A DNA stretch of 64,000 nucleotides from an uncultured bacterium (GTDB lineage: Bacteria; Omnitrophota; Omnitrophia; Omnitrophales; Aquincolibacteriaceae), in assembly GCA_964562525.1 (NCBI GenBank), contig CAZLTL010000010.1:15389-79388 (forward strand), written 5' to 3'. Every line of letters starts with the position of its first letter. The stretch's first letter is position 1. This document shows, in pieces, positions 40,553-58,804 of this stretch. The translations under genes and the position numbers were made by a program. Below the pieces are notes generated by a model that ran no database searches, was not told the DNA's origin, and saw only the letters and a program-made list of their open reading frames with translations.

Positions 40553-40572
40553 TTAAGATAAGCTTATCTTAA
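40553..40572. promoter_or_regulatory. 20-bp perfect palindrome TTAAGATAAGCTTATCTTAA (predicted Rrf2/NsrR-type operator), 20 bp upstream of the truncated Rrf2 gene
   Basis: Identical 20-mer at 56972-56991; same GATAAGCTTATC core at 58253-58270 and 58775-58794, each 15-45 bp upstream of a start codon. Confidence 0.6.
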
Positions 40573-40847: not shown

Positions 40848-41593
40848 TCACAAAAAAACAACGGCCCGAAACCTTATTCGAAATACCTCAGGTTTTGATT
40901 CAATCGATTCGAGCGAATTCGGACTTATCGAAATTGCCGGCTGATGCGATTGAAGATTTGGCGAAACAAGCGGCACGCAGGAAGTTTGTCCGCCGACAAA
41001 TTATTTTTGAAGCCGGTCAGCCCGCGCAGGATGCTTGGATTTTGATTAGCGGTAAAGCGGTGCTGGGCTATACGGCGCTCTCGGGGGCTTCTTCTGCGAC
41101 TTGCGTGGCGGGACCGGGAGATTTGTTCTGCTGCCTGCCGATTTTGGACGGCGAAGGTTATCCCGTTACGGCGATCAGTGAAAAGAAAAGCGAAGTTCTT
41201 ACGATTCCGCTTGCTGTTTTTAAGCAAATGCTTTGGCAGCATCCGGAAGTTTTTCAGTCTGTGTTAAAACGGATGTCCGCTAGTTTAAGAGCGGTTGAGT
41301 GCGGGCATTGTCACCGTGTTGATCGTGTTTCGGTAAGAATTGCGCGCACTTTGCTTGATTTAAGCCTAAAGCATCAGGATGTGATTCCGCTAACCAAGTG
41401 GGATATCGCGCGGCTTTCCGGAACTACGGTTGAGACGACGATTCGCGTGATGGCAGAAATGAAAAAGAAGAAAGCGATTGCCGGGGCAAAAGAAGCGATC
41501 AAAATTTTAGATTTTGATAAGCTGCGTGATTTCCTTACCGAATCCGATCAAGATTCAAGCGGCTGCGCCTCGCAAACCAAAAAAAGAAAATAA
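40844..41593 (+). CDS. Crp/Fnr-family transcriptional regulator (Dnr/NnrR-like; no FNR N-terminal Cys cluster)
   Basis: N-terminal cNMP-binding beta-roll (RRQIIFEAGQPAQDAWILISGKA) and C-terminal HTH (ARLSGTTVETTIRVMAEM); translationally coupled to the truncated Rrf2. Confidence 0.8.
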   Translation: MITKKQRPETLFEIPQVLIQSIRANSDLSKLPADAIEDLAKQAARRKFVRRQIIFEAGQPAQDAWILISGKAVLGYTALSGASSATCVAGPGDLFCCLPILDGEGYPVTAISEKKSEVLTIPLAVFKQMLWQHPEVFQSVLKRMSASLRAVECGHCHRVDRVSVRIARTLLDLSLKHQDVIPLTKWDIARLSGTTVETTIRVMAEMKKKKAIAGAKEAIKILDFDKLRDFLTESDQDSSGCASQTKKRK

Positions 41594-42310
41594 CGGTTTA
41601 ATTTTAGCGCAAAGCTCGCGCACCGATTTCGGATCAGGTTCGTCCAGCAGCTTTGCTTCGCAACCCTGATTGCGGAAAAGCTGCAAAAAAAAAGTTTTTG
41701 AACCCAGACCCGCAAAATATTCCGCAGTTTCCAGAACTTCGGCTTCACTTAAAAGATCTGGATGATAGGTCATGCGCAGTTCATGCGGGATGTCCGATGC
41801 AGCCAGCAATTTTGCGCTATCCGCAACTTGATCAAAAGCTGCCGCACCTGTGAGTGAAGCATAGCTTTGTTTGGGAGCTTTAACATCGAGGCCAACCCAA
41901 TCACAAAAGGGGAGTATTTCTTTTAATCTGCGTGGATGCATGCCGTTGGTGTGAAGCCCAACGGCATAACCATGGTCTTTTATCTTTTGCGCGAGCTGGG
42001 GAAGATTTTTATGTAAGGTGGGCTCACCGCCTGAGATTACGATCGCTTCAAGCATATTTTTTCGGCTGTGCAAAAAAGAATCGATAGCTTCTTCGGTGAT
42101 CACGCTCTCGGACTCAAGCGGCTGCAGATGAGGGTTGTGACAGTAAGTGCAGCGCCAAGGACAGCCTTGAGTAAAAAAGACCGCCGCGAGTTTTCCGGGG
42201 TAATCCACGGAGGAAAATCCCGTAATTCCCGCGACGGGAACTTTTTGATCCGTTTTATTTACAAATGGCAACGGACTGGGGGCATTCACGGAAATGCAGT
42301 CTTTCAGCAT
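41555..42310 (-). CDS. nrdG: anaerobic ribonucleoside-triphosphate reductase activating protein (radical SAM)
   Basis: VDYPGKLAAVFFTQGCPWRCTYCHNPHL. The CxxxCxxC motif embedded in GCPWRCTYCHNP is diagnostic for NrdG. Confidence 0.85.
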   Translation of the reverse strand: MLKDCISVNAPSPLPFVNKTDQKVPVAGITGFSSVDYPGKLAAVFFTQGCPWRCTYCHNPHLQPLESESVITEEAIDSFLHSRKNMLEAIVISGGEPTLHKNLPQLAQKIKDHGYAVGLHTNGMHPRRLKEILPFCDWVGLDVKAPKQSYASLTGAAAFDQVADSAKLLAASDIPHELRMTYHPDLLSEAEVLETAEYFAGLGSKTFFLQLFRNQGCEAKLLDEPDPKSVRELCAKIKPLFSFFGLRGAAA

Positions 42311-42450: not shown

Positions 42451-44478
42451 TTAAATAACCGGTGAAAACTCACCGGCTTGTTTTTGAGCTATGATTTCAT
42501 CGTCGCAAGTCGGGCAAAATTCATGTTCTCCTTTCAGATAACCGTGCTTGGGGCAAATCGAAAAAGTAGGTGTAATGGTGATATAAGGCAGCTTAAAATT
42601 TTCAAGCGCACGCCGCACGAGCTTACGGCAAGCGTCTGCATTTGAAAGCCGCTCATTCATGTAAAGATGCAGCACTGTTCCGCCGGTATATTTGGTTTGC
42701 AAAGCATCTTGCCGCATTAAAGCTTCAAACGGATCATCCGTCAGCCCCACGGGTAATTGCGACGAGTTGGTGTAATAAGGCCGCTCAGGTGTTCCGGCTT
42801 GCAGAATTTGCGGGAAGCGTTTCGCATCTTCTTTGGCGAAGCGGTAAGTGGTGCCTTCGGCCGGCGTGGCTTCCAGATTGTAGAGATGTCCGGTTTCTTC
42901 CTGAAATTCTCGAATGCGCGTGCGGACATGGTCAAGCAGACGAATGGCAAAAGCATGGCCCCACTCACTCGCAATATCGGTTCGGCCGTCGGTGAAATTG
43001 CGAATGCATTCATTAATCCCATTGACCCCGATGGTGGAAAAGTGATTGCGCAAAGTCCCGAGATAGCGTTTGGTGTAAGGCAATAATCCGCCGTCAATCA
43101 AGCGCTGGACATATTTACGCTTCATTTCCAAACTTTCTTTGGCGAGCTGCATCAGATAGTCCACTTTTTCAAGCAAGGCGGTTTCATTACCTTTGTAAAG
43201 GTAACCCAAGCGCGCGCAGTTGATTGTAACCACTCCGATCGAGCCGGTTTGCTCGGCCGATCCGAAGAGGCCGTTGCCGCGTTTCAAAAGCTCACGCAAA
43301 TCGAGCTGCAGTCGGCAGCACATGGAACGAATTTGATTCGGCTTCATATCTGAGTTTAAAAAATTTTGAAAATAAGGGAGCCCGTATTTTGCGGTGAGCT
43401 CGAATAAAAGTTCGCTATTAGGATGATCCCAAAGAAAATCGGGTGTGATGTTGTATGTGGGAATCGGAAAAGTGAAAATGCGGCCACGGCGGTCGCCCTG
43501 CAGCATGACTTCCAGATAAGCTTGGTTGATGGTATCCATTTCTTTTTGCAATTCGCCGTAAGTAAAATCCATTTCTTTGCCGCCGACAAAAGGTTTTTCC
43601 TGCCGCAAATCTTCGGGGCAAACCCAATCGAAAGTAACATTGGTAAACGGAGTTTGTGTGCCCCAGCGTGAAGGAACATTGAGGTTATAAATAAACTCCT
43701 GCATTTGCTGTTTGACTTGAGCATGAGTGAGTTTGTCCGTGCGCACGAAGGGAGCTAAATAGGTGTCGAAAGAAGAAAAGGCTTGAGCGCCGGCCCATTC
43801 ATTTTGCAGGGTTCCGAGAAAATTCACCATTTGCCCCACCGCGGCCGAGAGATGTTTGGGCGGAGCCGCCTCCACTTTTCCGGGGACACCGTTGAAGCCT
43901 TCGCGTAAAAGTGTTTTAAGAGACCATCCCGCGCAATAACCACACAGCATATCAAGATCATGAATATGAATATCCGCGTCGCGATGCGCTTTGCCGATGG
44001 CTTCGGTATAAACATGCGAAAGCCAATAATTCGCAACCACTTTGCCGGATAAGTTAAGGATGAGTCCGCCGAGCGAATAACCTTGGTTGGCGTTTGCGTT
44101 CACACGCCAGTCGAGACGGTCTAAATATTCATTCACGGTGGAAGCGACATCGACCACAGTGCGCGCATCTTCGCGTGCGACGCGCCGTTTTTCGCGGTAA
44201 ATGACATAGGCTTTTGCTGTGCGCGGATAATTGGATGTGATTAAAACCTGTTCGACAATGTCCTGAATTTCTTCGATGGAAATTTCCTGTGGCGCACGAT
44301 GATCAATCACTTTGATGGCTTGGCGCGCCAAGATAAGAGCTTCTTCGTTGTCAATTTCTCCGGTGGCTTGGGCTGCTTTTTGAATGGCGCGATGAATTCG
44401 AACTCCATCAAATGAATTTTTTGAGCCATCGCGTTTGCGGACGGCAGGAATGTTTTTTGGGGTTAACAGATCCGACAT
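42451..44478 (-). CDS. nrdD: anaerobic ribonucleoside-triphosphate reductase
   Basis: N-terminal ATP-cone (MSDLLTPKNIPAVRKRDGSKNSFDGVRIHRAIQKA), large glycyl-radical barrel, C-terminal CPKHG...CPTCDDEI zinc ribbon. Start chosen at ATG 44478 (AGGAGA ribosome-binding site upstream); the ORF track extension to 44670 is unsupported. Confidence 0.9.
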   Translation of the reverse strand: MSDLLTPKNIPAVRKRDGSKNSFDGVRIHRAIQKAAQATGEIDNEEALILARQAIKVIDHRAPQEISIEEIQDIVEQVLITSNYPRTAKAYVIYREKRRVAREDARTVVDVASTVNEYLDRLDWRVNANANQGYSLGGLILNLSGKVVANYWLSHVYTEAIGKAHRDADIHIHDLDMLCGYCAGWSLKTLLREGFNGVPGKVEAAPPKHLSAAVGQMVNFLGTLQNEWAGAQAFSSFDTYLAPFVRTDKLTHAQVKQQMQEFIYNLNVPSRWGTQTPFTNVTFDWVCPEDLRQEKPFVGGKEMDFTYGELQKEMDTINQAYLEVMLQGDRRGRIFTFPIPTYNITPDFLWDHPNSELLFELTAKYGLPYFQNFLNSDMKPNQIRSMCCRLQLDLRELLKRGNGLFGSAEQTGSIGVVTINCARLGYLYKGNETALLEKVDYLMQLAKESLEMKRKYVQRLIDGGLLPYTKRYLGTLRNHFSTIGVNGINECIRNFTDGRTDIASEWGHAFAIRLLDHVRTRIREFQEETGHLYNLEATPAEGTTYRFAKEDAKRFPQILQAGTPERPYYTNSSQLPVGLTDDPFEALMRQDALQTKYTGGTVLHLYMNERLSNADACRKLVRRALENFKLPYITITPTFSICPKHGYLKGEHEFCPTCDDEIIAQKQAGEFSPVI

Positions 44479-44607
44479 GTTTTCTCCTGTGAATAGTAGT
44501 ACATAAAAAATAAACCACCAGATACGGTAGTTTACGGGTGTTTTATTTCGATCTTGTATGACGCAAATCATATGAAGCAAAAAAAGATTCGTTGAAAATA
44601 TCTCCTT

Positions 44608-45021
44608 ATGCAAAACAAAGAGATCAAACCTCTCATCTATGCCTGTTCTGGGTGCTCCAATGCCGGGCAAATGTCCAACTGGATTGCGGTTCGTATTGAT
44701 CGACTTGGCGGCGCAGAAATGTCCTGCATGACCGGCGTCGGCGGAGGTGTGCTCGCACTTGTCAACAAAGCCCGAACACGAAAAAAAATTGTCATCGAGG
44801 GCTGCAAACTCAGTTGTGCTTCAGCTTGCCTGCGTCAGCAAAATTTAGAAGCCGAGATGACTTTGAATTTACAGGATTGGGGTGTCATTCGGCGTGAACA
44901 TGACGATTTTGATCAGGCCGTGGCTGAAAAATTGGTGGAGCAAGTGATCGCCCAAATGCAGGCAAAAAGGCTTTGGAAATCAAGTTCTGAGGATGGCGGA
45001 GAAAAGAGGGCGGCATCATGA
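44608..45021 (+). CDS. small Cys-rich protein, possibly DGC-domain-like metal-binding protein
   Basis: 137 aa; IYACSGCSNAGQ ... IEGCKLSCASAC pattern resembles the DGC/zinc-chelating family; first gene of a tightly packed six-gene plus-strand operon. Confidence 0.45.
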   Translation: MQNKEIKPLIYACSGCSNAGQMSNWIAVRIDRLGGAEMSCMTGVGGGVLALVNKARTRKKIVIEGCKLSCASACLRQQNLEAEMTLNLQDWGVIRREHDDFDQAVAEKLVEQVIAQMQAKRLWKSSSEDGGEKRAAS

Positions 45022-46463
45022 CTTTGAAGCAAGTTGTTGTGATTGGCGGTGGAATTTCAGGTCTTGCGACGACTTATTTTTTAAAAAAAGAAAGTCAGCG
45101 GCGTGGGCGGCCTATTTCTGTTCACGGTATCGAAGCTTCACCGCGTTTGGGAGGGATGATTCAAACCCATTTCCATGAAGGTTGCCTGATCGAACAAGGG
45201 CCTGATGCGTTTGCAACGGAAAGACCCGCCATGCTTGATTTGTGCCGCGAATTGGGTTTGGAATCGGAGTTGATTTCAGTTCAGCCCGAAAGCCATGGTC
45301 TTTTTCTGCGTGAGAATAACAAGCTTTGTCGTTTGCCAGATGATTTTTGTGGAATGACTTCGATGAAACTATCGACTTTGTTGCGTTTGCCTTGTCTTAG
45401 TTTGAAGGGCAAATTGCGTATGGCTTGTGAAGGCTTGGTGCCGCGCCGGCGTGATTATTTGCCCGAGAGTTTAGGGAGTTTTATCGCGCGCCGTTTTGGA
45501 AGCGAGGCTTTGCAGAGATTAGCGCAGCCTTTTTTGGGAAGCATTTTCGGTCTCGACCTTCGGCAAGTCAGCTTGCAGGCATCCTTTCCGCAGTGGGCGT
45601 TACTTGAAGCAAAACACGGGAGTTTGACAAAAGCATTTTGGGCGGCAAAAAGAAACTCTTCGGCGATTATTTCGACAGGTTTTCGTAGTTTTAAGCGAGG
45701 GCTTTCCGTGCTTGTTGAAAAGTTGGCTGAATCATCGGGTGTTGATTGGAAAACCGGTGTTCATGTTGTGGATCTGAAAAAAAACAATGAAGGTTGGAAA
45801 ATTCTTTGCGCGGACGGAAAAGAATTACAAGCGGATGCAATTTTTTTATGTTTGGCTGCCAAGCCGGCCGGCAGGTTGATTGAGGGAGATTTTCCGGAGC
45901 TCGGAGAATGCCTAAAACTTCAGCCGGTGCGGTCTGTTTTTTTGGTTAATGCAATTTTTTACCGAAAGGACTGGCCTGATAACTTGCGTGGAAGCGGAAT
46001 CATTAGCGGAATGGATCCAGCTTACGAAATGCAAGGCGCCACTTTTTCCGGTTTTAAATTTGAAGGGCGATCACCGGGGGGGAAAGTTTTAGTTCGTATC
46101 TTTGGTTCTTCCTTAAAGTCAAAGTCTTTTGCGGAGTTTTCAAACGAACAAGTTGCAAAACGCATTCTTCACGATTTTAGTGCGGTGAGCGGATTAAAAT
46201 CAAAACCGTTATGGTCAGAAGGTTTGCGCTACGAAGAGATATTGCCAAGCTATGACATGAGTTATTTCGCTTGGAAACAAAAAACCGAATCGCTCTTGAA
46301 AAACCAAAGCGAAATTTATTTTGCCTCACAATCGTATCAATCGGGAGGTTTGTCGGGATGTGTTGCGGGAGCGCGAAAAGCAGCGGAGACTTTTTTTAGC
46401 CGATTGGAAAAGAATGGCTCTGCAAAGTATCAAAGGAAGGATTCGAATTATGCCCATTCATGA
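45018..46463 (+). CDS. HemY-family FAD-dependent oxidase (protoporphyrinogen/coproporphyrinogen oxidase-like)
   Basis: N-terminal dinucleotide-binding VVVIGGGISGLATTYFL and IEASPRLGGMIQT match HemY/PPO signatures; 481 aa. Confidence 0.7.
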   Translation: MTLKQVVVIGGGISGLATTYFLKKESQRRGRPISVHGIEASPRLGGMIQTHFHEGCLIEQGPDAFATERPAMLDLCRELGLESELISVQPESHGLFLRENNKLCRLPDDFCGMTSMKLSTLLRLPCLSLKGKLRMACEGLVPRRRDYLPESLGSFIARRFGSEALQRLAQPFLGSIFGLDLRQVSLQASFPQWALLEAKHGSLTKAFWAAKRNSSAIISTGFRSFKRGLSVLVEKLAESSGVDWKTGVHVVDLKKNNEGWKILCADGKELQADAIFLCLAAKPAGRLIEGDFPELGECLKLQPVRSVFLVNAIFYRKDWPDNLRGSGIISGMDPAYEMQGATFSGFKFEGRSPGGKVLVRIFGSSLKSKSFAEFSNEQVAKRILHDFSAVSGLKSKPLWSEGLRYEEILPSYDMSYFAWKQKTESLLKNQSEIYFASQSYQSGGLSGCVAGARKAAETFFSRLEKNGSAKYQRKDSNYAHS

Positions 46464-47547
46464 TCAATTTGATTTTAATCAAAAGCCTTTTTTGGTGATT
46501 TGGGAAACGACACGCGCTTGTGATTTAGCCTGTGTGCATTGTCGCGCCTGTGCTCAACCATTGCCCGCGCCCGATGAATTGACAACGGAACAGGGCAAAA
46601 TGCTTTTGCGTCAGATTCAGGAGGCGGGAGCACCGTTGGTTGTTTTTAGCGGTGGCGATGCGTTGAAACGACCCGATATCTTTGAGTTGATTCGTGAAGC
46701 CAAGCGTTTGCGTCTGCGCGCGGCGGCAATTCCCGCGGTGACGCCGGCATTGACGCCTGAGGTTTTTAAAGAGTTTAAAGCGGCTGGTTTGGATCAGTTG
46801 GCGTTTAGTTTGGATGATGCTGACCCGGTTGTTCATGATCAATTTCGCCGTACGCCCGGAGTTTTTGACCGGACGCTGGAAGCGGTTCGTCTTGCGCGGG
46901 AGGCGGGGCTGGGTGTGCAGATTAATTCGCTGGTGAATGTTCATAATCAGGATCGTTTGGAGCCGTTAATGCGACTGATGGAAGGCTTGGACATTGTTTT
47001 TTGGGAGGTTTTCTTTTTAGTGCCGATGGGGCGCGGAAAAGATGTGGAAGTGATGACCCCGGAACTTTTTGACGCGGCATTTAAAAAGATTTATGCATTT
47101 GGGAAGCGTGTTTCTTTTATCATCAAAGTTACCGAAGCGCCGCATTACCGCAGATATTTTCTTGAGCAGGAAGAAAAACAAGAAGCTCGAAAAGTGGCGC
47201 TTTTAGGATCGAGCGCGCATGGCAAAAAAAATGTGCGACAACAAGCCGGTCGTGTGAATTCAGGGAAAGGATTTGCGTTTGTTTCTTATCGCGGCGATGT
47301 TTATCCCAGCGGTTTTCTCCCGATCGCGACCGGGAATATTCTTCAAACACCGATCGGTGAAATTTACCGCAATCATCCGGTGTTTCGCGAACTTCGAAAT
47401 GAATCGCTTTTAAAAGGTCGGTGCGGTCTTTGTGAATATCGTGAAACTTGCGGCGGCTCGCGCGCAAGAGCCTACGCGCTGACGGGCGACTATTTGGCGG
47501 AAGACCCGACCTGCGCTTATCAGCCGGCTTGCGTGCTTAAAACATGA
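46450..47547 (+). CDS. radical SAM / SPASM-domain protein (AhbD/NirJ-like)
   Basis: FLVIWETTRACDLACVHCRA (CxxxCxxC) and C-terminal SPASM/twitch CGLCEYRETCGGSRARAYALTGD...DPTC. Start placed at the internal ATG 46450 (MPIHDQ); ORF track opens at 46321 inside the HemY-like gene. Confidence 0.7.
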   Translation: MPIHDQFDFNQKPFLVIWETTRACDLACVHCRACAQPLPAPDELTTEQGKMLLRQIQEAGAPLVVFSGGDALKRPDIFELIREAKRLRLRAAAIPAVTPALTPEVFKEFKAAGLDQLAFSLDDADPVVHDQFRRTPGVFDRTLEAVRLAREAGLGVQINSLVNVHNQDRLEPLMRLMEGLDIVFWEVFFLVPMGRGKDVEVMTPELFDAAFKKIYAFGKRVSFIIKVTEAPHYRRYFLEQEEKQEARKVALLGSSAHGKKNVRQQAGRVNSGKGFAFVSYRGDVYPSGFLPIATGNILQTPIGEIYRNHPVFRELRNESLLKGRCGLCEYRETCGGSRARAYALTGDYLAEDPTCAYQPACVLKT

Positions 47548-48539
47548 TAAAACCTTCGATGCCTTTGTCCTTGCCGAAATGTGATCAAAAGCTGAAAAGA
47601 AACGGAATTTCTTTTGATCTTGCAATGCGTTTAATTCAGCTTGAAAAAGAAGAAGATGTGCGGGCGGTGATGAATTTAGCAGCCGAACTGACGACTGTGA
47701 TTCATGGTAGGCGTGCGGATCTGTGCCAAATTATGAACGCAAAGAGCGGTCTTTGCGGAGAAGACTGTGGTTTTTGTTCTCAGTCGCTCCGCCATCATTC
47801 TGAAACTGAAAAATTTAAGCTGACTCCACTTGAGATAGCAATCCAAAGAGCGCGAACAGCTCGGGAAAATGGCGCGGAGGAGTTCTGTATTGTGACGTCC
47901 GGTCGCCGATTGAATTCGGAAGAGTTTAAGCGGGTGATCGAAATGATTCGTGAAATTCGAAAGCAAGTTGCCATCAAAGTGGATGTTTCGATTGGTTTTT
48001 TAAGCAGGGAGGAGGCGGTGGCGCTTCGAGAAGCCGGGGCGCATCGTGTAAATCACAATCTTCAAACTTCGCCGGATTTCTACACCAAGGTTGTCAGTAC
48101 GCACTCGTATCAAGACCGCAAAGAAACTTTGCAGGCGATTCGCGGAGCGGGTCTTGAAATTTGTTGCGGAGTGATTTGGGGAATGGGAGAAACTCGTGAA
48201 GATCGCATCCGCTGCGCGTTTGAAATTAGATCTTTTAATCCCGAGTGTGTTCCTGTGAATATTTTGGATCCGCGTCCCGGGACACCGCTTGAGAACCAAC
48301 CTGGTATTGATACCGCGGAAGTTTTAAAAACATTGGCAGTGTATCGGTTGATTTTTCCCCAGACCTGTTTGAGGCTTGCGGCCGGGCGAAAGCGGCAATT
48401 GGGAAAGGATCAAAAAAAGGCATGGAATGCGGGCGTGAACGGATTAATTATCGGAGATTATTTGACGGTTTCAGGTGTGGCACTTGAAGAAGATTTTAGA
48501 ATGCTTAAAGAACTTGGCGTGAAATGGGCGCGACCATAA
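47544..48539 (+). CDS. BioB-family radical SAM protein (biotin-synthase-like)
   Basis: SGLCGEDCGFCSQS (CxxxCxxC), VNHNLQTSPDFY, SYQDRKETL, GLEICCGVIWGMGET and RLAAGRK align with E. coli BioB motifs. The BioB Cys128 ligand position appears to be Asp (IKVDVSIGF) by hand alignment. Confidence 0.75.
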   Translation: MIKPSMPLSLPKCDQKLKRNGISFDLAMRLIQLEKEEDVRAVMNLAAELTTVIHGRRADLCQIMNAKSGLCGEDCGFCSQSLRHHSETEKFKLTPLEIAIQRARTARENGAEEFCIVTSGRRLNSEEFKRVIEMIREIRKQVAIKVDVSIGFLSREEAVALREAGAHRVNHNLQTSPDFYTKVVSTHSYQDRKETLQAIRGAGLEICCGVIWGMGETREDRIRCAFEIRSFNPECVPVNILDPRPGTPLENQPGIDTAEVLKTLAVYRLIFPQTCLRLAAGRKRQLGKDQKKAWNAGVNGLIIGDYLTVSGVALEEDFRMLKELGVKWARP

Positions 48540-48554
48540 AAAATCAAAAATTTT

Positions 48555-49847
48555 ATGCAAAAAGAAATTGATTTAGCCAAACAATCTCAGGGAACTTTAT
48601 ATGTGTTTCTCTCAGAAAAGGATCATCAATGTCTTGAGGAAATTCATCAATGCTATGGTTTGACGCATCAAGATTTGCGCGAATTATGCGAAAACGCACG
48701 TGATCTCGAAATGTGGGGTGAATCTTTTGCCAGCGAATGGAATCGATTTGAACAAGAGGTCAGCCGGGTTTTTTTATCAAGGCAAAGAAAGAAGAGGCTC
48801 ATCGCTCATATTCGGCAAAGGATGGCGGATTTACGCGCTCGGTTAAGGGAATATCCCTCTCAGGATGTTGTTTCGAATCGATGCGAATCAAAACCGCCGC
48901 AAATCACTTGGCAAAAATCTCCGGAAGTAACTTGGGGGAAGTGTCCGGCATCTGTGCCCGCGCTTTTATGCTGTGGTCTGACGACGTTGGAGACAGCGGC
49001 TAACTGTGCATTTGAATGCAGTTATTGCGCGGTAAAACCCTTTTACGGAAATCAAATGGCGATTTATTCGGAATTGCGTCAAAGATTGACCCGCATGGAG
49101 TTGGATCCTAAACGCTATTACCACATCGGGACCGGACAATCTTCGGACTCTTTGGCTTGGGGTGATTCTGGAGGCATTTTAACCGATTTGTGCGAATGGG
49201 CAGCGCAACATCCTCAGGTTTTGCTCGAGCTAAAAACAAAATCAAGCCAAGTAGATTTTTTTTTAAAAAACAAAGTCCCCTCGAATCTGGTTTGTAGCTG
49301 GAGCCTGAACACGCAAAAAGTGATCGAGCATGAGGAGCAACGGACCGCGTCTTTGGAGTCACGTTTGGATGCGGCATGGAAACTTGCCCACAAAGGACAA
49401 AAGGTGGGCTTCCACTTTCATCCGTTGGTGAATTACGAAGGAGGTGCGAAGGAATATGATGCGCTTGCAAAAAAAATACAAAACAAATTCAAATCAGATC
49501 AAATTGCTTTTATCTCGTTTGGGACGCTTGTCTTTGGTAAATCAACTCTGCGCTTAATTCGCGAGCGAGGCGGGGCTGACAAAATTCTTCGGATGGAAAC
49601 GGAAATCGGACCTCACGATAAAGCAACTTATCCGGAGGCAACAAGGGAGTTTCTTTTTCGTGGGATGGTTGACAGTTTTAAAGATTGGCGCGACAAAGTT
49701 TTTATGTATTTGTGTATGGAAGATTCGGAGATGTGGCGCAAAGTTTTTGGATGGAGCTATGATAGCTCCCTTGCTTTTGAGCGAGATTTCTTTTCGAAAA
49801 TAGGTCCTCAAGTGGGGCTCCGTTTGGCTTCGGGTACCGAGATTTAA
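48555..49847 (+). CDS. radical SAM protein, spore-photoproduct-lyase (SplB)-like family, with ~130-aa N-terminal extension
   Basis: CAFECSYC (CxxxCxxC) at ~residue 155; the downstream region is SPL-like; the N-terminal domain is unrecognised. Confidence 0.55.
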   Translation: MQKEIDLAKQSQGTLYVFLSEKDHQCLEEIHQCYGLTHQDLRELCENARDLEMWGESFASEWNRFEQEVSRVFLSRQRKKRLIAHIRQRMADLRARLREYPSQDVVSNRCESKPPQITWQKSPEVTWGKCPASVPALLCCGLTTLETAANCAFECSYCAVKPFYGNQMAIYSELRQRLTRMELDPKRYYHIGTGQSSDSLAWGDSGGILTDLCEWAAQHPQVLLELKTKSSQVDFFLKNKVPSNLVCSWSLNTQKVIEHEEQRTASLESRLDAAWKLAHKGQKVGFHFHPLVNYEGGAKEYDALAKKIQNKFKSDQIAFISFGTLVFGKSTLRLIRERGGADKILRMETEIGPHDKATYPEATREFLFRGMVDSFKDWRDKVFMYLCMEDSEMWRKVFGWSYDSSLAFERDFFSKIGPQVGLRLASGTEI

Positions 49848-49849
49848 AA

Positions 49850-50887
49850 ATGACAGCGATTCAATTTGAGCGCGGAAACATATCCTTAGTTGAAGCGGAG
49901 GTTCTTCTTCAAAACGGCAGTGAAGAACAATGGAAGGCTCTTTTTTTGTATGCACGCGAATTAACCGAAATAAATTTCGACCACAAAATCGACTTCTTCG
50001 CACCGCTTTATTACTCAGATTATTGCGTGAATGATTGTGCTTACTGCTCTTTTCGAATTAAAAACCGTCAATTTTCAAGAAAAGTGCTTTCAGTCAAAGA
50101 ATTTTTAAAAGAGGCGGAATATCTTTGGCAGGAAGGGCACAGGTCGATTCTTTTGGTTGCGGGTGAGCATACTCCCGTTGCGGGAGCTGCTGCGTTGGTT
50201 GAGTATGCAAAAGCTTTGCATGCCTCAGAGTTTTTCTTTGAATTAGCCGCTGAGACTGGCGCGCTCACTTCTGAAAGCTATGCACAGCTTGTTAAGGCAG
50301 GGATCTCACGTAATTTGCTTTACCAAGAAACCTATGATCGCCAAGTTTACGCGCAGGTCCATTTATCCGGACCCAAGCAGGATTTTGATTGGCGATACGA
50401 AGCTCCGCTCCGCGCCCTTCAGGCGGGCGTCCAAAGTTTTGGCATGGGAGTCTTGCTAGGGCTTGCGCCGGATTGGAGAAAAGAGATCTTGGAGCTTTTC
50501 CGGCATGCCATGGCTTTAAAAGCCAAAGCTACGCGCCCTTTCTTTTTGACTTTTTCTTTTCCGCGTTTGTGTTCAGCCCAAGGTAGTGACATCGCTTCTT
50601 TCCCGGTGACCGATCAGGATTATGAAAAAATTATTGCGCTCACGCGGGTTGTTTTTCCCGATGCCGGGATTGTTTTAAGTACGCGCGAAACAGCTGCGTT
50701 TAGAAAAGAATTATTGCAAAAAAAAATGGGTATTACGCATATGAGCGCGGGGGTTTCAACGACGGTTGGTGGCTACACGAAAGCAAAAAAGATGAGCCTG
50801 GGGCAATTTGATATTTCAGATGAGCGGCCGCTGAAAGAAATTGCAACGGAAATGACCAAAATGGGATTTATTTTAAACCGCGTCTAG
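49850..50887 (+). CDS. radical SAM protein of the ThiH/HydE/MqnC-like family
   Basis: PLYYSDYCVNDCAYCSF (CxxxCxxC in the YSNYCxNxCxYC context typical of the ThiH/HydE/HydG/Mqn group); 345 aa. Confidence 0.6.
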   Translation: MTAIQFERGNISLVEAEVLLQNGSEEQWKALFLYARELTEINFDHKIDFFAPLYYSDYCVNDCAYCSFRIKNRQFSRKVLSVKEFLKEAEYLWQEGHRSILLVAGEHTPVAGAAALVEYAKALHASEFFFELAAETGALTSESYAQLVKAGISRNLLYQETYDRQVYAQVHLSGPKQDFDWRYEAPLRALQAGVQSFGMGVLLGLAPDWRKEILELFRHAMALKAKATRPFFLTFSFPRLCSAQGSDIASFPVTDQDYEKIIALTRVVFPDAGIVLSTRETAAFRKELLQKKMGITHMSAGVSTTVGGYTKAKKMSLGQFDISDERPLKEIATEMTKMGFILNRV

Positions 50888-51290
50888 CTTTTTTTGCGTC
50901 ATGGATCATCCGTTTAACCATGAGAGTGGCCGTTGCCTTGGCAACTAACTTTCGGTTTAATCCGCGGATTTCACATTCCAAAAACGAGAGCGTTTTCCCT
51001 TGCGATACGACATGCGCTCTTGCGTGGAGGACTGTGTTGATAAAGACAGGCCGAATAAATTGAATCTTCAATTCAACTGTCACTCCGGTTATATTTTTTT
51101 TGAATGAAGTTAGGAAAGCTTTTCCCATCGTTTCGTCGGCAAGCATGCAAAGCATGCCCCCGTGGATATGCTTGAAAATATTAACATGCTCTTCACTCAC
51201 TTTAAATCGGCACACGGCCTTACCGTTCGAAGGGCTTATGACATGCAGACCCAAAAGCTGTGTGGCAGGAGAGTGATCGATTTTTTTCAT
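50868..51290 (-). CDS. PaaI/YbgC-type hotdog-fold thioesterase
   Basis: HGGMLCMLADETMGKAF hotdog active-site motif, 140 aa; ATGA-coupled downstream of the B12-radical-SAM gene. Confidence 0.75.
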   Translation of the reverse strand: MKKIDHSPATQLLGLHVISPSNGKAVCRFKVSEEHVNIFKHIHGGMLCMLADETMGKAFLTSFKKNITGVTVELKIQFIRPVFINTVLHARAHVVSQGKTLSFLECEIRGLNRKLVAKATATLMVKRMIHDAKKARRGLK

Positions 51291-53404
51291 GAGAGAGTGG
51301 GGTGGTTAACGTCGCGTTGATAGAATCCGACTTCGAAAATGATGGCCCACACAAACCGAACGAGCAACGCCGTTTCTTGGAGGCTGACTTTTATCAACTC
51401 CACGAGGTTTAATCTCAAAATATGCCCGTGTTTTAAGTTGAGCTGAAAACTTTTCCAGTAATGATTTAAAAAACTTCGATTCGGAAGCAGAGCGATAGAA
51501 AATAAATTCAGTTTTTTTATCCAAAGTTGAAGTTTTGAAGGGATGCTGTGGGAGGTATTCTTTTCCGGCGTTATTGCGGCATGTCGGTAAAGAGATTGGA
51601 GGGTTGACAATTTGATTTTACGCCAATCGGTGAATTGGGTTTGAAGTTTTCCAAGTTCGAACAGAACCTTTTTTTCAAGTCGGCTACGTGGGCGAGTGAT
51701 AAGCCAAACCTCTTCCATTTCAATCAATAGGCGGCACCAACCGACTAATGTTTCGATGCGTGCCCATAAGCGTTGCTTAAAATGAACCCACGGGTTTTCT
51801 CGGGGGAAGAGACCGCGGCGTGTCAGGCGATCTTTAAAACGAAAAAACCCATGAATCATGGGGTGCCCTTTCTCAACCTGAATGGAATTTTTGCACCAAA
51901 TGAAATTAAGAAAGATATCCCAGTACCGCCTAGGGTGAATGTGGGTAAGAATTCTTTTCAAATTTTCAGGGGCGTAAAAAATTTGCCATGCTGATTCATA
52001 CACACGAGTCCATTCCCCGGGACGCATTTGAGCATGGCGATAAGTTTCGTGAAATGTGTCAAAATTATTTAAGTCAGCATCAATCATGAAGCCACGGTTC
52101 TTTCCATGGACATAGTCCATGGATCCAGGGAGAGGTGTCAGCATAAAAAAAGATGCTTGCTCGGCGTTCAACTCCAACAAGTTTGCCATGTTGCGTTGAA
52201 CGGATTCGGCAGTGTCAAACGGGAAACCAATAATGTAGGCTAGGTGGGTTGCAATGGCTGCGCTATGATAGGCCTCAATCATGGTCGAAAACTCGGAAAC
52301 TTTATTTTGTTTTTTAGAAGCAGCTTTGAGATTTTCTTCGTTGAGGCTTTCCATGCCGATGAAAACTTGCCGACAGCCCGCTTGAGAGGCCTTGGTGATA
52401 AAGTTTTGAATTTTATGAGAGAGCGTATCGACCTGAATCATGAATGTGATTGCAATATTCTCATTTTTCCGCAACTGAATCAGTCCATCGAAAATGAGTT
52501 CCCAGTTTTTATTCCGTGAAAAATTGTCATCCGTAAAAAAATAGTAAGATATTTTCTTCTCTCGATAATTATCGCGAATCCAATCGATAATGCGGTTGAC
52601 GGCACGAAAACGCATTTGGCGACCCTGAACATTGATGACTGTGCAGAAGCTGCATTGAAAAGGGCAGCCGCGGCCGCAATCCAGCGTCGCAAAATGTGAG
52701 ACGGCATAACGCGAGAGGAGATTCTTTGGAATTTCAGGCATAGGAGCCGCTGAAAGATCAGGCGCTTCATGCAAAAAATTGTAAACAGGTTGCGTTGAAT
52801 TGGTTAAAACATCGCGTAAAATTTCTTCCCAGCGATGTTCAATTTCACCGGCAACGAGAATAACGCCTGCGGATTTCAAATCAGCCAATTCAGGCGAGAG
52901 ATTAGCGAGAGTTGAAATCACGCCGCTGACATGAAAGCCCCCGATCATAACGTCGATATTACTTTTCTTTAATTCCAAAGCCAGGTCGTAAGCACGCGGG
53001 AATTGATTGGATTGAACTCCCACAAGACAAACGAGAGTATGCGTATTTTTTTTACGACTCTCGCGGATAATCCGTTGTGTGTCAACCTTCTGAACCGTTT
53101 CATCAATAGCCTCAACTTGCCATTTCAAATTAGGTCCAAGAGCTTGCCGTTTGCGAACATCCTCCGTTAGTCCGTAGAGGCAGGCAAGGGTATTGCTCGG
53201 CAATACACCTTTCCAGTAGCGTATGACATAGCCGTCATCATCATATTTTGAAGGCTTGATCAGATGAATCTTCAGCCGACGCGGAGAGTGGGAATCGGTT
53301 AAGTGTTTAGCGGATGACGCCGCATTTTTTTCTACATCGGCACTACACTGCTTACAAATCGGAACACGCTTCGACAAAGTATTAAATCTCCACAGGTTAG
53401 ACAA
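51287..53404 (-). CDS. B12-binding-domain radical SAM protein (class B-type) with long C-terminal extension
   Basis: N-terminal cobalamin-binding Rossmann-like region (LVCLVGVQSNQFPRAYDLALELKKSNIDVMIGGFHVSG), then CGRGCPFQCSFC (CxxxCxxC); 705 aa. Confidence 0.7.
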   Translation of the reverse strand: MSNLWRFNTLSKRVPICKQCSADVEKNAASSAKHLTDSHSPRRLKIHLIKPSKYDDDGYVIRYWKGVLPSNTLACLYGLTEDVRKRQALGPNLKWQVEAIDETVQKVDTQRIIRESRKKNTHTLVCLVGVQSNQFPRAYDLALELKKSNIDVMIGGFHVSGVISTLANLSPELADLKSAGVILVAGEIEHRWEEILRDVLTNSTQPVYNFLHEAPDLSAAPMPEIPKNLLSRYAVSHFATLDCGRGCPFQCSFCTVINVQGRQMRFRAVNRIIDWIRDNYREKKISYYFFTDDNFSRNKNWELIFDGLIQLRKNENIAITFMIQVDTLSHKIQNFITKASQAGCRQVFIGMESLNEENLKAASKKQNKVSEFSTMIEAYHSAAIATHLAYIIGFPFDTAESVQRNMANLLELNAEQASFFMLTPLPGSMDYVHGKNRGFMIDADLNNFDTFHETYRHAQMRPGEWTRVYESAWQIFYAPENLKRILTHIHPRRYWDIFLNFIWCKNSIQVEKGHPMIHGFFRFKDRLTRRGLFPRENPWVHFKQRLWARIETLVGWCRLLIEMEEVWLITRPRSRLEKKVLFELGKLQTQFTDWRKIKLSTLQSLYRHAAITPEKNTSHSIPSKLQLWIKKLNLFSIALLPNRSFLNHYWKSFQLNLKHGHILRLNLVELIKVSLQETALLVRFVWAIIFEVGFYQRDVNHPTLS

Positions 53405-53575: not shown

Positions 53576-53591
53576 TATGATGCAGATCATA
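53576..53591. promoter_or_regulatory. second TATGAT-N4-ATCATA palindrome (TATGATGCAGATCATA)
   Basis: 6-bp perfect arms; ~80 bp upstream of the fabB-like start. Confidence 0.45.
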
Positions 53592-53672: not shown

Positions 53673-54899
53673 ATGATGCGCAGAACGGTGGTGACGGGGA
53701 TCGGGGTTGTATCATGTCTGGGGAATAATCAGCGCGAAGTTTTTGACTCGCTTTATCACGGGCGTTCCGGAATTTCCTACCAAGAAGAATATCGGAGACG
53801 GGGTCTTCGCAGCCAAATCGCGGGAAGCATTCGCATTCAACCGGCTGATTACATTGACAGAAAATCACTGCGCTTTATGGGAAGCGCGGCGGCTTATGCG
53901 TGTATTGCGATGCAGCAAGCTGTAGAGGATGCGGGCCTGAAGCTTGAATCGATTTCAGATGATCGAATTGGGGTTGTCGCGGGTTCAGGCGGAGCGTCTT
54001 CCTGCAATCTAGTTGATGCTGCGGACTCGTTAAGAGCGCAAGGTATACGCGGTGTGGGGCCTTTTCGTGTGCCGCGTACGATGAGCAGTACGGTTTCGGC
54101 TTGTCTGGCCAATTATTTCAAAATAAGAGGGGTGAATTATTCGATGACATCGGCATGCGCGACCAGTGCGCATTGCATCGGACATGCGATGGAACTGATT
54201 CAGCTTGGAAAACAAGATCTTGTTTTTGCGGGCGGCGGCGAAGAAGAGCATTGGACTTTGAGCATGCTCTTTGATGCGATGGGTGCGCTTTCGTCCGAAT
54301 ATAACACTGTTCCGGAAAAAGCGTCGCGGCCGTTTGATATGAGTCGCGATGGGTTTGTGATTGCGGGCGGCGGCGGAATTTTGGTTTTAGAAGAACGCGA
54401 ACGGGCTTTGCGGCGGGGAGCAAAAATTTATGCAGAGCTGGCGGGTTACGGCGCAAATTCGGATGGTTTTGATATGGTGCTTCCCTCAGGGGAAGGTGCC
54501 GCGCGTTGTATGCGTCAAGCGATTCAATCCCTTGGACAGGATGAGTCGGTAGACTATGTCAACGCTCATGGTACGGGAACCCAGCAAGGAGATTTGAAAG
54601 AAATGGCGGCGATACGGGAAGTGTTCGGTACGAAAATTCCCCGCATCAGTTCGACGAAGTCTTTGTCCGGCCATTCGCTTGGTGCCGCCGGAGTTCACGA
54701 AGCTATTTACAGTTTAATCATGATGGAAAAGGGTTTTGTTGCCGCTTCAGCCAATATTGATCATTTGGATTCTGCATTTGAAAATATGCCGATTGTGCGC
54801 CAAAGACAAGAGGGTGTGAAGCTGGATGTTGTGATGTCCAACAGCTTTGGATTTGGCGGGACCAATGCTTGCCTGCTATTTCGGCGTGATCAAAAATAA
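53673..54899 (+). CDS. fabB: 3-oxoacyl-[ACP] synthase I (FabB-type KAS)
   Basis: Near-colinear with E. coli FabB from the N-terminus ([27 protein letters not shown] vs MKRAVITGLGIVSSIGNNQQEVLASL); active-site Cys in [16 protein letters not shown], His-His in NAHGTGT and SGHSLGAAG; FGFGGTNA C-terminus. Confidence 0.9.
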
Positions 54900-54910: not shown

Positions 54911-56725
54911 ATGTCAGTTCATTCATTTCATATCCCTGTGATGGGGACCGGTTTTACGATCGATACCCCTCTTAAGGTGGCGCGTTACGGCATTTCCTCG
55001 GTGATGTCGGTTGATGACAATCTGATGGAGAAATTGCGCGAATATTATTCAGCGCAAGAGGGGCTTCCGTTTCAGCCGATTGCTAAAAACTTACTTGATT
55101 CCCGGGCACGGAGAATTACGGCTTATTTAAATTTAGTGCATGACTTGGTTCAAAAGCAATTTTCAGAATTAAAGCAATCTTCGTTTGAGCCTGGAAGCGA
55201 AATTACAAAATATTTTGAGTTGCTGGCGGATGACAGTGAACTCAAAAAAGAGTATAGCCGAATGATGGCGATGGAAGCGGGTGATGCAAAGATTCAGCTT
55301 CAAAGTGAATTGCGTCAAAAGCTAGAGGTCGGCTCGATCGATGTTAATTTGCTCACCAAGCTCGATCGTGAAAACTATCAGAAGGGAGAAAAACTTTCGC
55401 GTGATTATGCCGATGGCGTGGCGGCTTTGCGCGGCTTTGCCCAAAGTAAATTAGAGTCTTCAGTTGTTTTTTCGGCGGGAATTAATCCGTATCTGTACGG
55501 TTCTTTAGAGCAGTATTCTGATTTTTTTCCTGATCCGCTGGGTGCGGTAAAAAAGAAAATTATTATCAAAGTCAGTGATTTCCGTTCGGCAGTGGTGCAG
55601 GGACGGTTTCTGGCCAAAAAAGGGTTATGGGTTTCCGAGTTCCGCGTCGAGTCGGGGCTGAATTGCGGAGGGCATGCCTTTGCGACAACGGGGCAGCTGC
55701 TGGGAGTCATTTTGGAAGAATTCAAAAAAGAGCGGGAAAGTTTTTCCGCGGAGCTTTTTGAAATTTATAAAAAAGCACTTCTTGCAAAAGGAAAAATGTG
55801 CCCTTCGGTTAAACCTCGATTGAGAGTTACAGCTCAGGGAGGCGTGGGAACTTTTGCCGAACATCAATTTTTATTGCGGCACTATCAGTTGGATAGCGTG
55901 GGCTGGGGAAGTCCGTTTCTTTTGGTGCCGGAGGTGACATGTGTGGATCCGGATTCTTTGACTAAGTTAAGTCAAGCCGACGAAAACACCGTTTATTTGA
56001 GTGATTTGTCTCCGCTTGGCGTACCGATTTATAGTCTTAGAAATTCGGCGAGTGAAGCGATGCGTCTTCAGCGTATTGCTGCGGGAAAGCCCGGGAGTCC
56101 GTGTTTGAATAAGTATATGGCTTATAACACGGAATTTCCCGGAGAACCTCTGTGTGCGGCTTCCTCAGAGTATCAATCAAAAAAGATCGCGCAATTAAAG
56201 ACTCAAGATTTAAGCCCTGAAAAATACAGCGAAGAATACAAAAAAATCGTAGATAAAGCCTGTGTTTGTCATGATCTCGGGGAAGGTGCGCTTCTTAAAT
56301 ATGGTATTCCGTCCCGCAGTGTTAAGCCTGTTCCGGCGGTTTGTCCCGGGCCGAATATTGTTTATTTTTTTAAAATCGCGACTCTGCGCGAAATGGTGGA
56401 TCATATTTATGGTCGGATGAATTTGCTCAAGAAGGAAAAAAATCGGCCGCACATGCTGATTAATGAATTCCGGATCTATATTGATTTTTTCAAGAAAAAG
56501 AGGGCGCAGTTTTCAGAGCCTTTGAATGATAAAGATAAAAACTATTTGTCGGATTTCTTAACAAATTTGAATGGTTGTTTGAATTATTATTTTCAGATGA
56601 TTGACCAACTGTTTGAAGAGTCGCTTGCAGCCAGAGATTCTTTTCTTGAAAGTCTGAAGGCTTTTCAACAAGACGTGGACTCTTTGACAGCTTCTTTGAT
56701 TGGACTTCGTTTTGGCACAAGCTAG
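54911..56725 (+). CDS. hypothetical protein (604 aa), possibly with N-terminal NMO/FabK-like flavoprotein segment
   Basis: No firm family. The N-terminal IPVMGTGFTIDTPLKVARYGISSV loosely resembles the [26 protein letters not shown] start of nitronate-monooxygenase-like TIM barrels. GLNCGGHAF motif mid-protein; follows fabB-like after an 11-nt gap. Confidence 0.45.
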   Translation: MSVHSFHIPVMGTGFTIDTPLKVARYGISSVMSVDDNLMEKLREYYSAQEGLPFQPIAKNLLDSRARRITAYLNLVHDLVQKQFSELKQSSFEPGSEITKYFELLADDSELKKEYSRMMAMEAGDAKIQLQSELRQKLEVGSIDVNLLTKLDRENYQKGEKLSRDYADGVAALRGFAQSKLESSVVFSAGINPYLYGSLEQYSDFFPDPLGAVKKKIIIKVSDFRSAVVQGRFLAKKGLWVSEFRVESGLNCGGHAFATTGQLLGVILEEFKKERESFSAELFEIYKKALLAKGKMCPSVKPRLRVTAQGGVGTFAEHQFLLRHYQLDSVGWGSPFLLVPEVTCVDPDSLTKLSQADENTVYLSDLSPLGVPIYSLRNSASEAMRLQRIAAGKPGSPCLNKYMAYNTEFPGEPLCAASSEYQSKKIAQLKTQDLSPEKYSEEYKKIVDKACVCHDLGEGALLKYGIPSRSVKPVPAVCPGPNIVYFFKIATLREMVDHIYGRMNLLKKEKNRPHMLINEFRIYIDFFKKKRAQFSEPLNDKDKNYLSDFLTNLNGCLNYYFQMIDQLFEESLAARDSFLESLKAFQQDVDSLTASLIGLRFGTS

Positions 56726-56971: not shown

Positions 56972-56991
56972 TTAAGATAAGCTTATCTTAA
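56972..56991. promoter_or_regulatory. 20-bp perfect palindrome TTAAGATAAGCTTATCTTAA (predicted Rrf2/NsrR-type operator), 45 bp upstream of the RIC gene
   Basis: Identical to 40553-40572. Confidence 0.6.
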
Positions 56992-57035
56992 TTCGATTTT
57001 TGAAATGTTTTAAGACTTACTAATGGGAGCTATTC

Positions 57036-57743: not shown

Positions 57744-57744
57744 G

Positions 57745-58794: not shown

Positions 58795-58804
58795 TGGAGG
58801 ATAA

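Follow-up and report, generated by a model that had tools for sequence, protein, structure and literature searches.

A candidate co-regulated island of oxygen-independent, iron-sulfur enzymes from several pathways in an uncultured Omnitrophota bacterium

Introduction

A 64,000-nucleotide stretch of DNA from an uncultured bacterium (Omnitrophota; Omnitrophia; Omnitrophales; Aquincolibacteriaceae; NCBI GenBank assembly GCA_964562525.1, contig CAZLTL010000010.1, positions 15,389 to 79,388 of the forward strand), hereafter the window, carries a dense cluster of eight genes (G1 to G8), among them five radical S-adenosylmethionine (SAM) enzymes of different subfamilies and a HemY-like oxidase. The question raised by such a locus is what holds its genes together: a single new pathway for a cofactor or a lipid, as proposed in an earlier reading made from the letters alone (the sequence-only reading), or a common regulatory switch under which enzymes of unrelated purpose have been gathered. 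The computational analysis described here favours the latter. With a probability of roughly 60%, oxygen-independent, iron-sulfur enzymes from several separate pathways are brought together here in a co-regulated island, and regulation, not one pathway, is the best explanation for the company that these genes keep. The proposed modules would be (a) a HemY/CgoX and AhbD-type pair, (b) a BioB, (c) a radical SAM enzyme with the fold of spore photoproduct lyase (SPL), (d) a rare ThiH/HydG-type enzyme and (e) a class-B-like radical SAM enzyme with a thioesterase, together with FabB and a protein of 604 amino acids (aa). The trait common to the members would be oxygen-independent, mostly iron-sulfur chemistry (NrdDG, the AhbD-type enzyme, BioB, FabB and the radical SAM enzymes). 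Separate functions are favoured because of the haem pair, the BioB score, the partnerless SPL-like gene and the retention of the block only in close relatives. The genes under discussion are as follows.

41555..42310, minus strand: NrdG, anaerobic ribonucleotide reductase activase (radical SAM), adjoining nrdD
42451..44478, minus strand: NrdD, anaerobic ribonucleotide reductase, 675 aa from an MSDLL start
44608..45021, plus strand: G1, DGC-domain Cys-rich protein, 137 aa
45018..46463, plus strand: G2, HemY-type oxidase dependent on flavin adenine dinucleotide (FAD)
46450..47547, plus strand: G3, TIGR04053 radical SAM/SPASM enzyme
47544..48539, plus strand: G4, BioB-family radical SAM enzyme
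48555..49847, plus strand: G5, SPL-superfamily radical SAM enzyme
49850..50887, plus strand: G6, radical SAM enzyme of the ThiH/HydG (tyrosine-lyase type) family
50868..51290, minus strand: G7, hotdog-fold (4HBT/PaaI-like) thioesterase
51287..53377, minus strand: G8, large radical SAM enzyme, relative of class B (B12-type)
53673..54899, plus strand: G9, FabB, beta-ketoacyl-acyl carrier protein synthase I
54911..56725, plus strand: G10, 604-aa protein

Gene layout and shared regulation

The map of open reading frames (ORFs) and the junction sequences bear out the packing described in the sequence-only reading: at 44608-50887 six coupled plus-strand genes, G1 to G6, converge on the coupled minus-strand pair G7/G8. 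The G1/G2 and G3/G4 junctions are 4-nt overlaps with the sequence ATGA, the G2/G3 overlap is 14 nt with the G3 start placed at ATG 46450 (which yields a 365-aa product found in the public collection), and 15 nt separate G4 from G5 and 2 nt G5 from G6. G6 and G7 overlap convergently by 20 nt, and an ATGA overlap on the minus strand joins G7 to G8. Pfam and NCBIfam profile searches also upheld the family labels of the genes, with the exception of a HydE-like label for G6, which is ThiH/HydG-like by its profile scores. For NrdG the Pfam domains are Radical_SAM and Fer4_12; the length of NrdD follows from its ORF translation, and its ortholog in a sister contig (L085) likewise has 675 aa, with ATP-cone and NRDD domains.

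The evidence for common control lies in two kinds of palindrome. The first is a 16-bp CRP/FNR-type box, TATGAT-N4-ATCATA, which occurs with at most one mismatch at three sites in the 64 kb (0.04 expected), all confined to the intergenic regions on either side of the cluster, nrdD/G1 and G8/fabB. The second is the Rrf2/NsrR-type operator AAGATAAGCTTATCTT, found with at most two mismatches at four sites in the 64 kb (0.02 expected): at 40555 (operon of the Rrf2 and CRP-family regulators), 56974 (ric), 58254 (Rrf2) and 58775 (hemerythrin-norB), and nowhere else.

44557..44572, unstranded: CRP/FNR-type box TATGACGCAAATCATA, in the divergent nrdD/G1 intergenic region; identical in L085
53456..53471, unstranded: CRP/FNR-type box TATGATCGGGATCATA, on the G8 side of the divergent G8/fabB region
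53576..53591, unstranded: CRP/FNR-type box TATGATGCAGATCATA, on the fabB side of the same region
40555..40570, unstranded: Rrf2/NsrR-type operator AAGATAAGCTTATCTT, 5' of the truncated Rrf2 and CRP-family regulator genes
40593..40847, plus strand: 84-aa Rrf2 protein, N-terminal helix-turn-helix (HTH) part only (Pfam Rrf2 43.5 bits, profile positions 2-75 of 132)
40844..41593, plus strand: CRP/FNR-family regulator, candidate binder of the TATGAT boxes (Pfam cNMP_binding and HTH_Crp_2)
56974..61615, plus strand: adjacent Rrf2-operator regulon, with operators at 56974, 58254 and 58775, comprising the next five genes
57036-57743, plus strand: RIC/ScdA
57745-58095, plus strand: PNPOx-like gene
58288-58755, plus strand: Rrf2 gene
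58805-59293, plus strand: hemerythrin gene
59327-61615, plus strand: quinol nitric oxide (NO) reductase (norB)

Four transcription units thus have the TATGAT box in common: nrdDG, G1-G6, G8-G7 and fabB-G10. All three boxes are unchanged in sequence at the corresponding positions of L085, whose proteins, where compared (G3, G4, G5 and G6), are about 74% to >90% identical to those of the window; two of the four AAGATAAGCTTATCTT operators, those of the regulator operon and of ric, were also found there unchanged. The CRP-family regulator has weak NCBIfam matches to CRP, FtrB, FixK and Fnr, and lacks the FNR-type N-terminal Cys cluster. Its start codon is overlapped by the stop of the 84-aa Rrf2 gene, whose short product has no room for a cluster-binding region and which is kept at the same place in L085 (746-1000). 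The NsrR score of the Rrf2 protein is no better than its IscR or SufR score in NCBIfam. A promoter and terminator scan of 44.3-57.1 kb returned counts not above those of shuffled sequence.

From these elements a cascade may be proposed, in which an anaerobic or nitrosative signal would lift repression by the Rrf2 protein, itself acting on the CRP-family regulator gene via the AAGATAAGCTTATCTT operator, and the CRP-family activator would then control nrdDG, G1-G6, G8-G7 and fabB-G10 via the boxes. The adjacent regulator is probably the protein that binds TATGAT-N4-ATCATA. The motif TGAT-N4-ATCA is the core recognised by the FNR family, for which the FNR consensus is TTGAT-N4-ATCAA. The arrangement accordingly resembles FNR/DNR-NsrR cascades in its palindromic core, in the presence of nrdDG in the regulon, and in the Rrf2-type operators that precede ric, hemerythrin and norB; it differs from them in the flanks of the box, in a regulator devoid of the FNR Cys cluster, and in an unusual regulon of haem, biotin and two uncharacterised radical SAM enzymes. 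The connection to anaerobic or NO conditions suggested by the sequence-only reading holds up on this evidence, as the cluster has its box in common with nrdDG, and the regulator gene has its operator in common with ric, hemerythrin and norB.

Two further observations concern the NO-related genes themselves. An insertion sequence element (rve transposase and an HTH gene) lies between hemerythrin and norB at 19629-20743 of L085, and there is no such insertion in the window. Immediately 3' of norB, at 61650-63008 on the plus strand of the window, lies a gene for an outer-membrane barrel of the Alginate_exp family, a homolog of which (50% identity; L002, 11066-12442) is found in a Desulfobacterales metagenome-assembled genome (MAG) by a CRP regulator, NnrS, a DGC gene and a G6-like gene, which suggests that this porin is tied to NO-related loci.

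A putative haem module

The operon begins with the DGC-domain protein G1 (Pfam DGC, 95.9 bits), for which a literature search on 'DGC domain' returned diguanylate-cyclase papers only. G2 matches the HemY model TIGR00562 over its full length (residues 4-458) at 192.9 bits against a cut-off of 97.85, has the Pfam domains NAD_binding_8 and Amino_oxidase, and carries the FAD-binding GxGxxG motif (VVVIGGGISGL, residues 6-16). It is probably a coproporphyrinogen III oxidase (CgoX), its substrate being read from its place beside a gene of coprohaem-decarboxylase type. That gene, G3, belongs to TIGR04053 (438 bits, cut-off 395), with its radical SAM cysteines at 24/28/31 and those of a C-terminal SPASM cluster at 325/328/334/355/361. 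The next-closest family is the haem synthase AhbD (TIGR04545), against which G3 scores 306 bits, under the cut-off of 500; G3 is a relative of AhbD outside the AhbD equivalog.

Gene order in relatives points in the same direction. Homologs of G3 adjoin a HemY-type gene in all three of the distant genomes sampled (L109, L110 and L111, with 74%, 60% and 57% identity to G3 among them), and in L111, an Omnitrophota genome, the order is G3-hemE-hemY-hemH beside cytochrome c biogenesis genes, with no hemQ among those four genes. BioB, SPL and G6 genes were absent near the G3 homologs of these three genomes. Another Omnitrophota genome (L008) carries the classical coproporphyrin-dependent set, hemD/E-hemY-hemH-x-hemQ. 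AhbD is found in organisms that have the coproporphyrin pathway and lack the other Ahb genes, and serves as an oxygen-independent alternative to HemQ/ChdC (PMC13564367; PMC5095920). No paper on TIGR04053 was found in the literature.

Because of the family scores, the conserved hem adjacency and the reviews on AhbD, G2-G3 is best read as CgoX followed by a putative coprohaem decarboxylase of AhbD type, and the two would catalyse the final steps of haem b synthesis by the coproporphyrin-dependent route, HemQ being replaced by an oxygen-independent decarboxylase. The likeness to the known pathway in which AhbD replaces HemQ/ChdC (HemY/CgoX, HemH/CpfC, then coprohaem decarboxylase) consists in the adjacency of HemY to an AhbD-related SPASM enzyme and in the hemE and hemH that join this pair in relatives, whereas G3 falls in TIGR04053 instead of the AhbD equivalog, the window has no ferrochelatase, and a DGC protein is coupled 5' of HemY. 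A role for G3 in haem d1 synthesis (as NirJ) was considered and rejected, given scores under the cut-off and the lack of other nir genes in the window or in the sampled G3 contexts, which hold hem genes.

A BioB-family enzyme with an unusual ligand set

Against TIGR00433 (cut-off 225) G4 reaches 360 bits, with 87 bits for the BATS domain, and its best matches in the PDB are the biotin synthases 8vdw, 8vcw and 1r30. When its residues are read against the BioB ligands listed in PMC10813225, the radical SAM cysteines fall at 71/75/78, and C115, C207 and R282 correspond to C97, C188 and R260 of E. coli BioB. In place of the E. coli cluster ligand C128 stands an aspartate, D147, and there are two additional cysteines: C61, at the position of Blautia C52, and C208, which forms a Cys-Cys pair at the C188 position. 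At the position occupied by His161 in Blautia obeum BioB, G4 has Asn, as do Type I BioBs. On these grounds G4 belongs to the BioB family and its ligand set is unusual; biotin synthase activity would be its expected function. Set beside BioB of Type I (E. coli) and Type II (Blautia, Veillonella; PMC10813225), it is alike in its full-length match above cut-off, its radical SAM motif, the Cys at the Type I position (E. coli C97), the equivalents of E. coli C188 and R260 and the Asn of Type I; the differences are the Asp at C128, an additional Cys at the place of Blautia obeum C52, the Cys-Cys pair and the lack of other bio genes in the window. A BioB-like fragment found beside a G6-clade gene in another contig (L095) has a single Cys at the C188 position.

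Other assignments for G4 and its neighbour G6 were tried and set aside. A HydE/HydG-type maturase pair does not fit, with G4 scoring 360 bits for BioB against 57 for HydE, G6 lacking the HydG C-terminal domain, and hydF missing; the pairs of the futalosine (MqnC/MqnE) and F420 (CofG/CofH) pathways gave scores of at most 45 bits.

A relative of spore photoproduct lyase

G5 is covered by the Pfam SPL domain over residues 148-343 only, and scores 68.7 bits against the spore photoproduct lyase model TIGR04070, under its cut-off of 400. The sequence-only reading had credited it with a new N-terminal domain. The domain is there, a four-helix unit followed by three invariant cysteines directly N-terminal to the radical SAM motif, yet it is not peculiar to G5: more than 3600 homologs share 40-47% identity over their full length, N-terminal domain included. 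An AlphaFold (AF2) model built from 31 family members reached a mean predicted confidence (pLDDT) of 88.9, and its best fold match is spore photoproduct lyase (Foldseek E 3e-12, target template-modelling score 0.62-0.66, 18% identity). Besides this fold, the CxxxCxYC radical SAM motif is held in common with that enzyme, while the low identity, the partial Pfam cover, the extra four-helix domain with three further conserved cysteines, and the occurrence of the family in phyla not known to sporulate (Omnitrophota, Spirochaetia, Calditrichota) set it apart.

Clustering of neighbouring ORFs revealed no conserved neighbour of G5 homologs, with no neighbour family present in more than 9 of the 80 genome loci; the largest such family examined started in a Spirochaetia MAG. 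A G6-like gene with DGC alongside was seen at one of the 80 loci (a Desulfobacterales MAG) and hemY, 4 kb away, at another (Omnitrophota), and at none of them did G3, BioB, G7 or G8 stand beside the G5 homolog. Because it has no conserved neighbour, G5 looks like a self-contained enzyme. In a Spirochaetaceae MAG (L003/L004, 12026-15136) an SPL-like gene lies about 700 bases 5' of genes that resemble larE, larB and larC of the nickel-pincer cofactor, with weak Asn_synthase/NAD_synthase, AIRC and Ni_insertion domains; this neighbourhood is probably a coincidence.

G7, G8, FabB and G10

The minus-strand pair and the fabB unit may belong to acyl or lipid chemistry. G7 is a hotdog-fold thioesterase (TIGR00369, 69 bits against 36.6; Pfam 4HBT). 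G8, described in the sequence-only reading as a 705-aa B12-binding radical SAM protein, is indeed a radical SAM protein, with CxxxCxxC at C238/242/245 and a C-terminal extension of about 250 aa. A length of 705 aa is unlikely: TTG 53377 is the probable start, for a product of 696 aa, because the gene is so called in an identical contig (L001) and is near in size to the 695-aa gene of L085. Nor did Pfam detect a B12-binding domain, even at E<=5, returning Radical_SAM only. Weak NCBIfam matches of at most 76 bits, aligned to class-B models from about residue 100, are to lipid, hopanoid and methyltransferase B12 radical SAM families, all far under cut-off, and the PDB matches are AprD4, CysS and TokK. 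Identification with the ladderane-type lipid B12 radical SAM family (TIGR04072) was rejected at 76 against 360 bits. In a search of plasmids G8 had a single match, a lone gene of 42% identity carried by a Phyllobacterium plasmid, with surroundings that were uninformative, and G10 had none.

FabB (G9; NF005935, 657 bits, cut-off 630) would by its family provide an oxygen-independent route to unsaturated fatty acids. G10 has no Pfam, NCBIfam or PDB match, and its single-sequence AlphaFold model was of too low a confidence for use (pLDDT 43); it contains the Cys motifs GLNCGGHAF, CVCHD and AVCPGP and lies directly 3' of fabB in every relative examined (L001, L085 and L088). G10 may act as a partner in making unsaturated fatty acids without oxygen, and it is probable that G8 with the hotdog thioesterase, and FabB with G10, act on acyl or lipid substrates.

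Conservation of the block

How far the cluster travels as a unit bears directly on the proposal that five radical SAM enzymes and a HemY-like oxidase make up a single new pathway to a cofactor or a lipid. This proposal draws on the tight coupling of G1-G6 and their convergence on G8-G7, on the single regulatory box held in common, on the lipid genes in the vicinity, and on the survival of the entire block in L085. Both there and in the identical 10-kb contig L001 the complete order is kept, from Rrf2-CRP-nrdGD to norB; the G5 and G6 proteins of L085 are ~75% identical to those of the window. Such retention is what shared descent leads one to expect. In a more distant relative, L088, the order is G3-G6-fabB-G10, with G3, G6 and fabB directly adjacent and identities of 84% for G3, 65% for G6, 81% for FabB and 75% for G10, and BioB, SPL, the hotdog gene (G7) and G8 are absent between them. 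The full block is confined to close relatives and broken up beyond them. Against the one-pathway proposal it also counts that HemY and G3 are accounted for as a haem module, and that the SPL-like gene is partnerless in 80 genomes, standing by a G6-like gene in just one. The neighbourhood data thereby largely refute a single new pathway, which we regard as very improbable: HemY/G3 falls to haem and G4 to BioB, both known pathways, and for the most part the genes are not co-conserved as a block. Regulation in common, with separate functions, accounts better for this pattern.

A rare ThiH/HydG-like clade

G6 is the member that fits least easily into a known pathway. It has Radical_SAM and BATS domains and its best PDB matches are HydG and ThiH, although its scores lie under both curated cut-offs (ThiH, TIGR02351, 288 bits against 380; HydG, TIGR03955, 222 against 312). 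The protein contains only four cysteines and ends at residue 345, without the second cluster of HydG type (CxxCx22C). Among 1.84 billion representative proteins, three rise above the ThiH/HydG continuum, at 325-296 bits against at most 231, and in a neighbour-joining tree of 110 representatives the G6 clade is monophyletic. In the sequences aligned, the clade lacks the C-terminal [W/F]KDW motif of ThiH sequences, has a two-residue insertion and misses about 30 N-terminal residues of the ThiH profile, and all members but one have the motif FFAPLY[FY]S. Outside the window's own lineage the members are 43-62% identical to one another, and their contexts can therefore be taken as independent samples.

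Is G6 simply a divergent ThiH (2-iminoacetate synthase), feeding the thiazole branch of the thiamine pathway independently of oxygen? In that case the island would consist of classical radical SAM housekeeping alone (NrdG, AhbD-type, BioB, SPL-type and ThiH), and there is some merit in the idea: ThiH is the top-scoring named family, proteins annotated as ThiH share 37-41% identity with G6, a BATS domain with no second cluster is as found in ThiH, and the theme of oxygen-independent enzymes is respected. The score under cut-off and the altered motifs of the aligned clade members tell against it, as does the neighbourhood, for neither thiG/thiS nor a thiamine pyrophosphate (TPP) riboswitch accompanies the clade in the window or in some 14 contexts, whereas a true ThiH from the same scan (L101) adjoins thiG. 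G6 is not a standard ThiH, and thiamine synthesis is an improbable role for it. Nor do hydE or hydF ever stand beside G6-clade genes in the contexts examined. In sum, G6 shares the fold family and domain make-up of ThiH/HydG enzymes and departs from them in its scores, in the missing HydG C-terminal cluster domain and KDW motif, and in forming a separate rare clade apart from thi and hyd genes. Cleavage of an aromatic amino acid (tyrosine-lyase chemistry) is the most likely reaction for it.

The surroundings of the clade in other genomes are varied:

L090: hemerythrin, G6-clade gene, G3-like gene, methyltransferase
L089: molybdenum cofactor (Moco) genes, hemerythrin, G6-clade gene, DGC
L002: SPL-like gene, G6-clade gene, NnrS, DGC, then CRP and Alginate_exp porin
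L095: BioB-like gene, G6-clade gene, MscS
L094: CRP, PK_C-like gene, G6-clade gene, MscS
L086 and L092: a radical SAM gene of ~260 aa adjoining the G6-clade gene
L087: fatty-acid desaturase, then a glyoxalase::G6 fusion
L091 and L093: neighbours unrelated

The clade recurs among genes of NO or anaerobiosis type without a constant partner. One might take this as the trace of a smaller new system centred on G6, in which G6 together with DGC, a DnrN-type hemerythrin and, in certain lineages, radical SAM enzymes of AhbD, BioB or SPL type would make, modify or repair a metal or tetrapyrrole cofactor during stress from anoxia or NO, G6 being no thiamine enzyme. Rarity, monophyly and the consistent distance from thi genes speak for such a system, as do the hemerythrin genes that run into the G6 start in L089 and L090, the DGC genes by G6 in L089 and L002 (DGC also being the first gene of the window operon), the G3-like genes that adjoin G6 in L088 and L090, the BioB-like gene in L095, and the resemblance of L002 to the window in NnrS, a CRP regulator and a 50%-identical Alginate_exp porin. 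Yet any one partner is found in at most 2-3 of the ~14 contexts, and other contexts look unrelated (MTHFR/MshEN, Rieske/HEAT, MscS, fatty-acid desaturase); the partners that do recur are all typical of NO or anaerobic regulons, for which shared regulation alone suffices, and no chemistry can be proposed that requires these parts. A search of the literature linking ThiH, hemerythrin and NO returned nothing relevant. Such a system is accordingly a possible but unlikely explanation, ahead of a thiamine role, and a regulatory island remains the preferred one.

Two details of these contexts may be added. In two independent lineages a hemerythrin gene of ~160 aa runs over the first ~20 nt of the G6-clade gene (L089, 2654-4196; L090, 530-2060), the proteins being 45-46% identical to the window hemerythrin (58805-59293). 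On two metagenome contigs a ~200-aa pyruvate-kinase C-terminal-like protein adjoins the G6-clade gene (L091, 2523-3155; L094, 7326-7907).

Weighing the evidence

A co-regulated island of separate functions has several points to contend with. Firstly, G1-G6 are translationally coupled, and such coupling often reflects functional linkage. Secondly, G6-clade genes elsewhere recur near the very gene types found in the window, namely G3-like (L088, L090), BioB-like (L095), DGC (L089, L002), SPL-like (L002), hemerythrin (L089, L090) and fabB (L088), and from these recurring neighbours a functional link among a subset of the island genes is possible. Thirdly, D147 in place of E. coli C128 makes the activity of G4 less than certain. 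Fourthly, further hem, bio or thi genes are missing from the 64-kb window, and partners elsewhere in the genome must be assumed. Finally, we infer both that the CRP-family protein occupies the boxes and which kind of signal sets off the cascade.

Significance

Were the island as proposed, it would be a clear case of a bacterium gathering oxygen-independent enzymes under one switch, enzymes that serve the synthesis of deoxynucleoside triphosphates (dNTP), haem, biotin and unsaturated fatty acids. The haem pair, the BioB, FabB, NrdDG and the style of regulation are of known kinds; what is new is the composition of the regulon and the rare G6 clade. The locus lends genomic support to the view that TIGR04053 proteins are AhbD-type coprohaem decarboxylases of the coproporphyrin pathway in phyla of Gram-negative type, and it offers a concrete predicted regulator-operator pair. 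Its remaining value lies in bringing together, in one regulon, the ThiH-like clade, the SPL-fold family with an N-terminal helical domain and the 604-aa partner of FabB, a common regulon being a defined condition under which the functions of those three proteins can be sought.

Genomic setting

The window is otherwise an ordinary piece of chromosome from an outer-membrane bacterium, with lptF/G, several tRNA synthetases, uvrA, dxs, coaBC and pfk. The cluster is preceded by the truncated Rrf2 gene, the CRP/FNR-family regulator, nrdG and nrdD, and followed by fabB, the 604-aa gene, ric/scdA, the PNPOx-like gene, Rrf2, hemerythrin, the quinol NO reductase and the Alginate_exp porin. An Rfam scan of the window returned no riboswitch and a single tRNA. 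Among the matches listed, the closest named homologs of G3 and G5 are mostly from Candidatus Omnitrophota. Instead of a fused coaBC, two adjacent ORFs at 36542-37867 encode the CoaC-type (Flavoprotein) and the CoaB-type (DFP) domain.

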